A stretch of 64,000 bases of DNA from a virus. Taxonomy: Duplodnaviria; Caudoviricetes. This document shows, one piece after another, positions 30,677 through 43,036 of this stretch (positions are counted from its first letter, which is position 1; each line of letters begins with the position of its first letter). The stretch lies in the IMG/VR virus record IMGVR_UViG_3300038393_000457, positions 1 through 64,000 of that record, one strand, 5' to 3'. Both the position numbers and the translations under genes were made by a program. The notes under the pieces are model-generated. The model did no database searches. It saw nothing but the letters and a program-made list of their open reading frames with translations, and was not told the DNA's origin.

Positions 30677-30855
30677 ATGCTTTCATTCTGGCAATTGCCA
30701 TTCTTACAGCTTCCCATGTGATTGTATATCCTGACAAGCCTGAATATCCAACTATTGAGGCTTGTCAGCAGGAGCAACTTACCTTGATTGACAAAAATCG
30801 TGACCTGTATTATGAAGGTCGCTTGATTTTGGTGTGTCAACCTAAGTAAAATTCT

Positions 30856-31075
30856 GGTGGATGGCACCGGCGCGCGGCGGGGACTAAGGTATGAATTGGT
30901 AACATCTTACATGGAATAAATTTGCTTCTATGGTGTAACGGCAGCACGGTGTCCTTATAAGACATAAGCGGTAGATGACCGCGCGGAACAGGTTCGAATC
31001 CTGTTAGAAGTACCAATCCTGGAGATCGGCTAGATTAGCTGGAACGGCACGGTTCGAAACCGTGATCCACTACCA
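30856..31075 (+). pseudogene. Sec/Ser-like long-variable-arm tRNA split at the anticodon by a 129-nt insert containing tRNA-Ile
   Basis: ggtggat (30856) pairs with atccact-ACCA (31075); ggggact...aatcct anticodon stem flanks the insert. Confidence 0.6.
30924..31015 (+). tRNA. trnI: tRNA-Ile(TAT) with long variable arm
   Basis: gtgtc-cttataa-gacat; gcggt-agatg-accgc variable hairpin; ACCA. Confidence 0.85.
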
Positions 31076-31354
31076 AAATTGAGGATACAATGAATATATA
31101 TTTGGTTTGGGGTAGATATTGCGTTCAATATGAAGGATGTGAGGAATGGTTTGTCTGCGCCTATTTCTCTGAGAAAGATGCTGAGAAGCATGTAGAATAT
31201 GCAAATAAATGGGTATCTGAACATATTGACTCTAGGGTAAAGGATTTCCCTAATCCTTATGATTCATATTGCACCGAATATTTTTGGCGTAGTGAGACCG
31301 AGTATCATTACAGCCCCATCCTCATAAAAAATTATTTTAAACCAATGTTGGAGC

Positions 31355-33210: not shown

Positions 33211-33798
33211 GTGCAAATTCTTTCACTTGACAAGTCTGGGTATCCTAGAGGGTTTATTACGATCCAAAATGCAATCGAAATGATTGCGAAGGATAAAATC
33301 CTTTGGAGTCTTGGTAACCCAATTGCAACTTATCGTGGTGGTTATAACAATGATGGTGTGCGTTCCGTAATCGAAACGCCACCTATCATTGCTATCACCG
33401 GAACAGAGTTTGCAAAACAAAAGCGTTTTCCTAAAGTTATCCTGACGAACAATTCGCTTTTTAGTAGGGATCGTCATATTTGCGCTTATTGTGGTGGAAA
33501 ATTCATGCCACGAAAGCTATCACGTGATCATGTAATACCTGTTTCTCGTGGTGGTCCGAATACCTGGAAGAATGTGGTGACTGCATGTATCCCATGTAAC
33601 ACCAAGAAGGATAATCGGACCCCAGAAGAAGCTGGAATGAAACTTCTGTATGTTCCTTATGAGCCCTCTCATGCGGAACATCTAATATTGAAGAATCGCA
33701 ACATCACAGAAGATCAAATGGATTATCTATCAAACCATGTGTCGCCGGAGTTTCTCCGGCGCATGACGGATGTAGAATTATTTGGTGAGGATAAATAA
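33211..33798 (+). CDS. HNH endonuclease (McrA/HNH_5-like)
   Basis: RDRHICAYCG...DHVIPVSRGG.NTWKNVVTACIPCN.KK. Confidence 0.9.
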   Translation: MQILSLDKSGYPRGFITIQNAIEMIAKDKILWSLGNPIATYRGGYNNDGVRSVIETPPIIAITGTEFAKQKRFPKVILTNNSLFSRDRHICAYCGGKFMPRKLSRDHVIPVSRGGPNTWKNVVTACIPCNTKKDNRTPEEAGMKLLYVPYEPSHAEHLILKNRNITEDQMDYLSNHVSPEFLRRMTDVELFGEDK

Positions 33799-35503: not shown

Positions 35504-35539
35504 ATTATAATGTCCCTATAGTGAAACTGAATAGTCAAT

Positions 35540-35617
35540 GGTGCTGTATCCCTCGACGCTACGAACGTCGTGAAAGGTAATTGGATCATGCAGGTTCGAC
35601 CCCTGTCAGCATCTCCA
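35540..35617 (+). tRNA. D-armless tRNA-Arg(ACG)-like RNA
   Basis: ggtgctg/cagcatc TCCA; cgacg-ctacgaa-cgtcg; only 7 nt between acceptor and anticodon stems. Confidence 0.7.
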
Positions 35618-36194
35618 TTATTCTATTAGGTTCTCCATATAGAAGCTTAATAGATTTTTTTACTTGATCTAATTTCTCCTGTTGTTTGATGACAACGATT
35701 GGATTCTTTGGATCAAGAAATATGTTAAGATTAGGAAGATAGAAATCTGGAAAGTATTTGTGTTCTTTCCCATTTTTATCGATCCAAGGAATTGATGTTT
35801 TTGGTTGTTCCCAAATAATATTGGCTTCATCAAGTAATTGGGCCATTTTTACTTCCCAACCAGAATCAAAGATAAAGTTTTTGTAAATTTGACGTTTTAT
35901 ACCGGAAGCATTCTTTCTTTTGACCGCGATGAAACATTGGTCAGAACAAGTTGTTCCAATTTTCTTTTGTGACGCAAAATATTTTTGGCATACAGAACAT
36001 TGTCGAAAATATACCTTGGAATTGGGTCCACAAACATGTCTCTTGCTGAAGAAGCCTCTTTTACCAATTGTTGTTGATTTTATCCTTGTATAATTACGAC
36101 CGCGTTTAAGGTTATTGTATGTTGCGGAACAAGATGAACCACAGAATTTTCTTTTTAATGGTATAAGTAAGTTGCAATTTAAACAATTATGCAT
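35586..36194 (-). CDS. PD-(D/E)XK-type homing endonuclease with N-terminal Zn-binding motifs
   Basis: CxxC repeats; DSGWE...KYFPDFYLP..NIFLDPKN. Confidence 0.8.
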   Translation of the reverse strand: MHNCLNCNLLIPLKRKFCGSSCSATYNNLKRGRNYTRIKSTTIGKRGFFSKRHVCGPNSKVYFRQCSVCQKYFASQKKIGTTCSDQCFIAVKRKNASGIKRQIYKNFIFDSGWEVKMAQLLDEANIIWEQPKTSIPWIDKNGKEHKYFPDFYLPNLNIFLDPKNPIVVIKQQEKLDQVKKSIKLLYGEPNRIMEMLTGVEPA

Positions 36195-36526
36195 TATAAA
36201 TCTCCTTCTAAATGCTAATTGTATTTAGTAAAATTTCGACTCAAGATGTGGGTTCGAGTCCTGCTAGGGACGCCATTTAAGAGGTTGTTATGACAGATTG
36301 GGGAACAGGTTGCACAGAGACGAGTGATGATTGTACTCTTCACAACCTTCATTGTGGTTATCCAAATTATCCTAAAGGTAAAAGGGATAAAGCAAAGATC
36401 AAAACTCCAACGGAGTTGATCGTGGAAAGAATGAGAAGTCTTGGTCTAGCTATCAATGACGCTCAGAGAATCGCCAATGAAGTTGTTCATGTACTTGGAC
36501 AAAATGGTTATTTGAAATAGAAATTT

Positions 36527-37454: not shown

Positions 37455-37529
37455 ACGGGAGTAGCTCAGTGAAAGAGCGTCTGGCATCAGGTCAGAAGGT
37501 CGGTGGTTCAAGTCCATCCTTCCGTGCCA
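37455..37529 (+). tRNA. tRNA with apparent TCA anticodon (A33, G37); suppressor-like or degenerate
   Basis: tctgg-catcagg-tcaga; acgggag/cttccgt; GCCA. Confidence 0.6.
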
Positions 37530-40361: not shown

Positions 40362-40434
40362 GCCTAGTGGTCTCGGGTACCAATCTGGTCTCATAAGCTG
40401 GATGTGATTGGTTCAAATCCAATACGAGGCACCA
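40362..40434 (+). tRNA. tRNA-Met/Ile2(CAT) with shortened D arm
   Basis: loop ctcataa; ACCA. Confidence 0.75.
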
Positions 40435-42960: not shown

Positions 42961-43036
42961 GGTTCCGAAGAGCAAAGGATAGAGCCTCTTCCCTGTCTAG
43001 GAAGAGTAGGGGGTTTGAGTCCCCCCGGAATCGCCA
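42961..43036 (+). tRNA. trnD: tRNA-Asp(GTC), weak D stem
   Basis: cttcc-ctgtcta-ggaag; GCCA. Confidence 0.8.

Follow-up and report, generated by a model that had tools for sequence, protein, structure and literature searches.

How does a bacterial virus come to carry a complete tRNA gene at the place where a second tRNA-like gene should have its anticodon loop, and does the interrupted gene still give rise to a product? Interrupted tRNA genes of bacterial viruses have so far been reported only as "enigmatic" introns, in the tRNAs of Lak megaphages (Devoto et al., 2019; PMC6784885), and a mechanism of repair has never been demonstrated. In one of these cases, tRNA-Thr(UGU), it was proposed that the intron "may itself encode a tRNA"; the alignment shown there included alleles that have the intron and alleles that lack it (PMC6784885). 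The locus described here is a clean and extreme case, in which a full, conserved decoding tRNA is enclosed by a paralog of its own class.

The DNA that was analysed, a stretch of 64 kb hereafter called the window, belongs to an IMG/VR virus record of 83.8 kb whose completeness is estimated at 47%. The contig is present in SRR35147322 and SRR35147169. The record carries genes for a family B DNA polymerase, a UvsX/RecA-like protein and a DnaB-type helicase, together with NAD-salvage genes and several endonuclease genes. This gene content points to a large, uncultured T4-like phage of bacteria as the source. A blastn comparison with reference phages returned no relatives of the window phage, and close relatives of the proteins of two neighbouring genes were not found in a collection of 5.8 billion proteins. 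The genome has about 40% G+C overall. ARAGORN called 31 tRNA genes, nearly all on the plus strand between 30.9 and 54.4 kb and most of them with an encoded CCA. The tRNA genes of the phage are typically preceded by AATT(T) and followed, after the CCA, by A(A/T)TT; AATT occurs at most 12 nt upstream in 15 of 35 tRNA-like genes, against a background of 8%. These flanks may represent a processing or promoter context. The nested unit itself is adjoined by ORFs on both sides, with no terminator.

A tRNA-Ile(UAU) enclosed by a tRNA-like shell

The outer tRNA-like shell, at 30856-31075, encloses a 38-nt AT-rich leader and a complete tRNA-Ile(UAU) (Table 1). A preliminary description of this DNA had placed a complete tRNA-Ile(UAU) at the anticodon-loop position of a second tRNA-like gene, and the tRNA itself is recognised by both ARAGORN and Rfam. 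The outer acceptor strands, GGTGGAT and ATCCACT-ACCA, had been said to pair fully, and by sequence they do so at seven of seven positions, the first of which, G1-U72, is a wobble pair. The long variable hairpin reported there (CGGCTA-GAT-TAGCTG) is indeed perfect. With the stems drawn in that description, the insert covers 30886-31014 and the length of 129 nt given for it is reproduced; as had also been noted, it holds no nuclease, and there is no ORF in it. The outer anticodon loop is absent, these 129 nt standing in its place. As for the anticodon stem proposed from the flanks ggggact and aatcct, pairing does exist, but it amounts to four or five positions between the strand at 31016-31026 and GGGA at 30880-30883. 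It includes one C.A mismatch (GGGACT/AATCCT), makes use of the terminal A of the inner tRNA, and lies at the level that ARAGORN controls give by chance. The two ends of the insert differ, the 3' end being exact (31015/31016) whereas at the 5' end the 38-nt leader intervenes.

Table 1. Elements of the nested tRNA unit and of its immediate upstream region, with positions in the window.
Feature	Position	Strand	Remarks
Promoter-like site TTGATT-18-TAAAAT	30823-30852	+	ends 3 nt before outer G1; consensus scan only
Outer acceptor, 5' strand GGTGGAT	30856-30862	+	7/7 complement of 31065-31071; AATT-type 5' flank
Outer GC-rich block	30863-30885	+	GG, D-like CACC-GGCGCGC-GGCG, then GGGGACT
Insert leader, AT-rich (26% G+C)	30886-30923	+	hairpin ATG-AATTGGTAA-CAT at 30891-30905
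Inner tRNA-Ile(UAU)	30924-31015	+	92 nt; called by ARAGORN; Rfam tRNA, 55.1 bits; encoded ACCA
ATCCTGGAGAT	31016-31026	+	3' strand of the weak outer anticodon stem, and connector
Outer variable hairpin CGGCU-AGAUU-AGCUG	31027-31041	+	perfect hairpin; loop displays GAU
Outer T arm CACGG-TTCGAAA-CCGTG	31048-31064	+	canonical G53, T54, T55, C56, A58, C61
Outer acceptor, 3' strand ATCCACT, discriminator A73, encoded CCA	31065-31075	+	ACCA followed by aaatt

Downstream, the flank of the outer gene resembles that of the other tRNAs of the window phage. Upstream, the GC-rich block ends in GGGGACT, the 5' strand of the weak anticodon stem. The spacing of the outer 5' part fits the layout of the tRNA-Ile(UAU) family treated below (7+2+15+1+5 nt); the sequence of the family is absent from it, and the block matched neither the family covariance model nor a tRNA D arm. 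Three of the four positions of the outer D stem are paired, and U8, A14, G18G19 and A21 are all missing. Both the D arm of the family (UAGUUUAAUGGYAGAAC) and the UAU anticodon are absent from the outer gene. A link between the outer 5' block and the variable-arm sequence of the family (GGTAGATG...ACCGCGCGG) was considered, found not to be significant, and dropped. The hairpin of the leader can be read as D-loop-like, or as holding a -35-like TTGGTA.

An assembly artefact can be ruled out, because an independent assembly (L290) has this region with 100% identity and a neighbouring protein is recorded on 13 contigs. Another question is whether the pairing between the two ends of the shell could be fortuitous. 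The probability of finding a 7/7 partner of the outer 3' strand in the 74-nt spacer is p = 0.04 when the spacer is shuffled, and about 0.02 when it is calculated from the density of such sites in the window (18 sites in 64 kb). The start of the outer 5' strand coincides with the start of a block of 80% G+C (30856-30885), which gives way at 30885/30886 to 26% G+C (30886-30923). In the minimum-free-energy fold of 30850-31082, the outer acceptor helix forms around the inner cloverleaf, but the fold is no better than those of shuffled sequences (z = -0.9).

Spliced forms of the outer gene are passed by ARAGORN at 11 junctions, with an identity that varies with the cut: Leu(AAG), Gly(ACC), Val(AAC) or Ser(GGA). 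In a control, the outer acceptor strand was grafted either onto random segments of the window or onto shuffled versions of the real GC-rich remainder. The pass rate was 27% for the random segments and 76% for the GC-matched shuffled 5' remainders. Given these rates, hardly any weight can be put on the outer "anticodon stem" and the D-like arm. The Leu(AAG), Gly(ACC) and Ser(GGA) identities were rejected as artefacts of the choice of junction.

Relatives of the two layers

Relatives were found by scanning viral contigs for two T loops lying too close to each other for two whole tRNAs, and one metagenome scan also supplied relatives of tRNA-Ile(UAU). Three further lineages of tRNAs whose variable arm is long were obtained: one from a single 198.8-kb phage (L082, L019 and L068), one from L139, and one from L150, L155 and L157. 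The members of the family measure 92-93 nt. Their anticodon is UAU, ACCA is encoded, and five pairs form a variable arm whose loop is AGAUN (AGACU in L082). The long variable arm of the inner tRNA is GCGGU-AGAUG-ACCGC. A family covariance model was built from four sequences; the inner tRNA scores 95.9 bits against the family model, over model positions 1-93 and with the UAU anticodon. In the family alignment, 93% of the cells are paired, and compensatory changes affecting both sides are seen in 15 of the 26 pairs. None of 500 shuffles reached the observed covariation, and no slid structure came close to it. Because of this covariation, the inner gene is recognised as a member of a real, selected tRNA family. 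A GAU sequence, the ordinary isoleucine anticodon, is displayed in the variable loop, and this holds for the family.

The class of the outer gene can be read from its 3' part, which aligns in register to positions 44-82 of the family model (11 bits, rough E = 0.001 for the 74 nt searched). The variable stems coincide, the loop AGAUU is the consensus one, and the connector and then the T arm follow in order. In 2.9 Mb of fetched phage and metagenome DNA, scanned for a 5-bp AGAUN hairpin 3-9 nt before a T arm, such a hairpin served as variable arm only in tRNA-Ile(UAU) genes, namely the inner gene, those of L139 and of the L150 group, and one in L185 that had been fetched independently. All other matches were anticodon arms of other tRNAs, or sites without a tRNA call. 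The outer variable hairpin precedes its T arm at the family's distance of 5-6 nt. Since the variable arm and the T arm align in register and this type of hairpin is specific to tRNA-Ile(UAU), the outer gene, judged by its 3' part, is a paralog of the inner tRNA-Ile(UAU) and is not Sec- or Ser-like. With it, the GAU-displaying variable arm has a second, independent bearer; this arm is a feature that marks the tRNA-Ile(UAU) genes seen; we found no paper on a tRNA-Ile(UAU) with such an arm.

The preliminary description had compared the outer RNA with a tRNA-Sec or tRNA-Ser. This comparison has to be given up, as the gene has a 7/5 geometry and the variable arm of the Ile(UAU) family. For selC in particular, the acceptor and T stems would be expected to have 8/5 (or 9/4) pairs instead of 7/5, and the eighth pair would here be G-G. 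The D region offers at best four of five pairs with a 5-nt loop, against a 6-bp stem with a 4-nt loop in selC, and the UCA anticodon is absent.

The same description had suggested looking in relatives for the uninterrupted form of the outer gene. None was found in the viral and metagenome scans, and close relatives of the phage are missing from the collections. A 23-mer from the outer T arm and acceptor has no exact match in the viral contigs, the loci of neighbouring proteins (L002-L007) have no tRNAs, and blastn-short searches with the outer halves returned no paralog from all the fetched DNA. Comparison therefore gives no demonstration of the insertion. The tRNA-Ile(UAU) genes of L139 and of the L150 group have no outer shell around them.

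The 198.8-kb phage deserves separate consideration. In L082, a hairpin and a faultless T arm come after the orthologous tRNA, the acceptor strand being TAGGCCC; this downstream T arm and acceptor strand are identical at 20 of 21 positions to those of the inner tRNA of the same locus. The orphan T arm and acceptor lie 34 nt 3' of the tRNA-Ile(UAU) (L082:2141-2300; also in L019, L068 and L173:8589-8750), and locally the orphan can extend to a 9-bp hairpin. A 5' half could not be assigned to it. No such half was found among the seven GGGCCTA sites of the contig; the 8.6 kb upstream of the orphan offer a single 7/7 partner, which gave no tRNA when spliced on; and the best candidate for a 5' half, GGGTTAA, forms six of seven pairs only. 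The inner tRNA of L082 is directly preceded by a good promoter-like site, TTGGAA-16-TAGAAT. Its leader motif, which resembles the hairpin motif of the window leader, is the -35 element of this site. The L082/L019 locus (contig G005) was therefore not retained as a case of shell conservation, the downstream element being a copy of its own tRNA at 20 of 21 positions and the similarity of the leaders having p = 0.66 by shuffling. Rather than being evidence of a selected shell, L082 shows a separate partial (tandem) duplication. It indicates a tendency of the long-arm tRNA-Ile(UAU) to gather fragments of its paralogs.

Two further observations were made on the fetched loci. At about 50 distinct phage loci (L008-L125), a normal tRNA is followed at 27-40 nt by a well-formed T arm that ARAGORN leaves unassigned, and some of these orphan T arms, e.g., those of L125 and of L048 after tRNA-Asp, look like acceptor/T-arm minihelices. 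In L150 (4876-4968, minus strand), L155 and L157, the tRNA-Ile(UAU) is directly followed by repeats of ATTTAAGGGACTGYAACAC about 60 nt apart; this looks like a CRISPR array that starts immediately 3' of the tRNA gene.

Origin and fate of the interrupted gene

Elements that could remove or mobilise the insert were looked for in and around it. In 30700-31200, Rfam at E values up to 10 recognised the inner tRNA and one noise match and nothing else, so that a group I intron, a hammerhead and other ribozymes are without a Rfam match. An archaeal bulge-helix-bulge intron was also rejected, since the motif cannot be drawn and the gene content is that of a bacterial phage. There is no nuclease in or beside the insert, the nearest being an HNH gene at 33211-33798, and the junctions show no repeat, palindrome or target duplication. 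With regard to RNA ligases, PF09414 (Rnl2-type) and PF01139 (RtcB) are absent from the 84-kb record, which means little as this record is only 47% complete. The control for the PF09511 (Rnl1) search matched nothing in any control genome, which makes that search uninformative.

The explanation that we hold, on balance, to be probable is that a promoter-plus-tRNA cassette went into a resident paralog, splitting it and replacing its function, and that the inner tRNA alone matures. A resident copy of tRNA-Ile(UAU) class would have been interrupted in the DNA for its anticodon loop by a cassette made of the AT-rich leader and a paralogous tRNA-Ile(UAU). The disruption of the outer gene would be compensated, because an intact tRNA of the same class lies collinear inside it; with AUA decoding taken over by the inner copy, the insertion would have cost nothing and so could have persisted. 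The nested unit would be transcribed from upstream and the inner tRNA released by RNase P and 3' trimming. The outer halves would then be by-products, joined at most by the acceptor helix. For the entry of the cassette, double-strand-break repair in a tRNA district rich in endonucleases is the obvious candidate.

Several features argue for this reading, and with it for the "dead gene" that the preliminary description had offered as one of two options. The inner family is conserved and covarying, and the two layers share one class. An anticodon loop is lacking in the outer gene, the D region there is degenerate, and the G+C content steps from 80% to 26% at the junction. Because the 38-nt leader separates the outer 5' part from the first nucleotide of the inner tRNA, RNase P would not produce a usable exon end. 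The lack of any Rfam intron or ribozyme and of a Rnl2-type ligase or RtcB in the 84-kb record is in its favour as well, as are a second split tRNA gene in the window and the HNH gene 2 kb downstream. It should, however, be noted that the universal T-arm residues are all intact in the outer 3' half and that the acceptor helix is perfect. Given this flawless 3' half and helix, a relic would have to be young, or kept by something. Also speaking against it are the 80% G+C of the 5' block, which is unlike neutral decay in a genome of 40% G+C, and the fact that no uninterrupted allele, nuclease or target duplication was found. The sequence shows the architecture, the class of both layers, and that the inner tRNA is intact and conserved; the insertion event, the loss of the outer gene as a decoding tRNA and the processing route are what we infer. 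Taken as a relic, the outer gene would illustrate the turnover of a phage tRNA array: a new copy landed in an old one and displaced it, and the recombination involved is probably the one by which homing endonucleases move.

Alternatively, the shell could be a non-decoding, tRNA-like clamp around the precursor of the inner tRNA. Its acceptor/T-arm minihelix would draw RNase P to 30855/30856 and provide a CCA-type 3' end, thereby excising a tRNA module from a polycistronic message, and it could stabilise the inner precursor or help it to fold. Such a role would account for a flawless 3' half and acceptor in a shell without the parts that decoding requires. The usual tRNA flanks of the phage at both ends, the adjoining ORFs without a terminator, and an acceptor helix that encloses the inner cloverleaf in the minimum-free-energy fold are also consistent with it. 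We nevertheless regard this as unlikely, as the fold does not surpass those of shuffled sequences, the shell is absent from the other members of the family (L139 and the L150 group), and the downstream T arm of L082 was copied recently from the inner T arm of that locus and is not a conserved shell. The reverse possibility, that there is no true outer gene, would make 31016-31075 an orphan 3' fragment of a paralog left by a partial duplication, with its upstream complement present by chance. L082 has precisely such an orphan, 20/21 identical to its own inner tRNA and devoid of a usable 5' half; moreover, the outer 5' block of the window has no family match and its acceptance by ARAGORN is uninformative. 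But a fortuitous 7/7 match has a p value of 0.02-0.04, the complement starts exactly where the GC-rich block starts, right after an AATT-type flank, and its distance from the junction fits a tRNA 5' half, so that we consider this origin very unlikely.

A functional nested gene, in which the inner tRNA would be a tRNA-shaped intron and the outer loop would be resealed by an RNA ligase, is to our mind just as improbable. It would require RNase P to cut at the 5' end of the inner tRNA, a 3' cut after the CCA, and trimming of the 5' half, with two tRNAs obtained per transcript. The exact 3' junction suits this route, 31016 being the first base after the inner CCA and usable as position 38 of a 7-nt loop, and the outer acceptor, T arm, variable arm and CCA are all intact; published Lak megaphage tRNA introns that may encode a tRNA (PMC6784885) offer a precedent. 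Yet cleavage by RNase P at 30923/30924 leaves a 38-nt tail on the 5' half, and Rfam recognised no second cleavage signal in the leader. The outer anticodon stem is at chance level and the D region has no U8, A14 or G18G19. Furthermore, the product would duplicate the function of the inner tRNA, and no ligase was found in the half genome at hand. More broadly, there is a rather low probability that the outer gene is alive in any form, be it as a ligase-resealed second molecule of tRNA-Ile class or as a non-covalent, CCA-ended tRNA-like particle, with the inner tRNA excised by the usual enzymes of tRNA end processing. If true, a bacterial virus would have a protein-only route of tRNA splicing, the intron being a real tRNA; an outer gene that is expressed and rejoined would amount to intron removal by RNase P and a ligase in bacteria. 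Some other explanation for the nested unit keeps a slim chance, slimmer than that of any reading above.

The split and replaced paralog that we favour can be set beside several known systems. Group I introns sit in the anticodon loops of bacterial and phage tRNAs, as in the cyanobacterial tRNA-Leu(UAA) and the Azoarcus tRNA-Ile. In the window too, a bacterial-type tRNA gene is interrupted in its anticodon loop, but the insert measures 129 nt, is itself a tRNA, and has no Rfam intron or ribozyme match. In archaea and red algae, split and permuted tRNA genes depend on a bulge-helix-bulge motif together with a splicing endonuclease and RtcB. As in these genes, the halves of the outer gene are apart in the DNA and would meet through the acceptor helix, whereas no bulge-helix-bulge can be drawn in the nested unit and the phage genes are of bacterial type. 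SegB is a free-standing homing endonuclease of the tRNA clusters of T-even phages, and the tRNA district of the window is likewise rich in endonuclease genes; unlike the "split and replace" cassettes of homing endonucleases, the insert has no nuclease inside or beside it. The Lak megaphage genes resemble the nested unit in that an insert with a tRNA fold interrupts the anticodon region of a phage tRNA gene, in a bacterial host and with no group I intron. The present case differs in that a decoding tRNA of full size, conserved and sharing the class of its host gene, forms the insert, that it brings a 38-nt leader, and that the outer gene has no usable D arm. In addition, the Lak outer tRNAs are treated as functional, whereas no intron-less allele was found here. 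What sets the nested unit apart is an insert that is a full decoding tRNA of the host gene's own family, with its own leader and free of nucleases. In the literature, we found no paper on the mechanism of tRNA-shaped inserts in phage tRNAs.

Other tRNA-like genes of the window

The second split tRNA gene lies at 35512-36272, where the acceptor strands GTCCCTA and TAGGGAC(+GCCA) are about 750 nt apart. Within it are found a tRNA-Arg(ACG)-like gene (35523-35617) with a poor acceptor and D arm, and an antisense ORF of 202 aa (35586-36194) with weak Phage_endo_I and TnsA-like Pfam matches. At 1046-1168 lies a type-II tRNA-like gene whose acceptor pairs 7/7 and whose D arm is canonical; a T arm is present and a CCA is not. 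Its anticodon loop holds some 26-29 extra nt, containing GGTTGCAACC, and the ARAGORN call of a Leu(UAG) with an intron is not convincing.

Two CCA-ended tRNA-like genes, at 40363-40434 and 42961-43036, were missed by ARAGORN and have non-canonical D regions. One of them has the loop CUCAUAA, with a CAU anticodon, and G8G9; the other has the loop CUGUCUA (GUC, Asp) and an anticodon stem of 7 bp. When this pair is included, only Tyr is missing from the tRNA set. Finally, a tRNA of ordinary size with a UCA anticodon, labelled SeC by ARAGORN, is present at 37455-37529 and looks like an opal suppressor.
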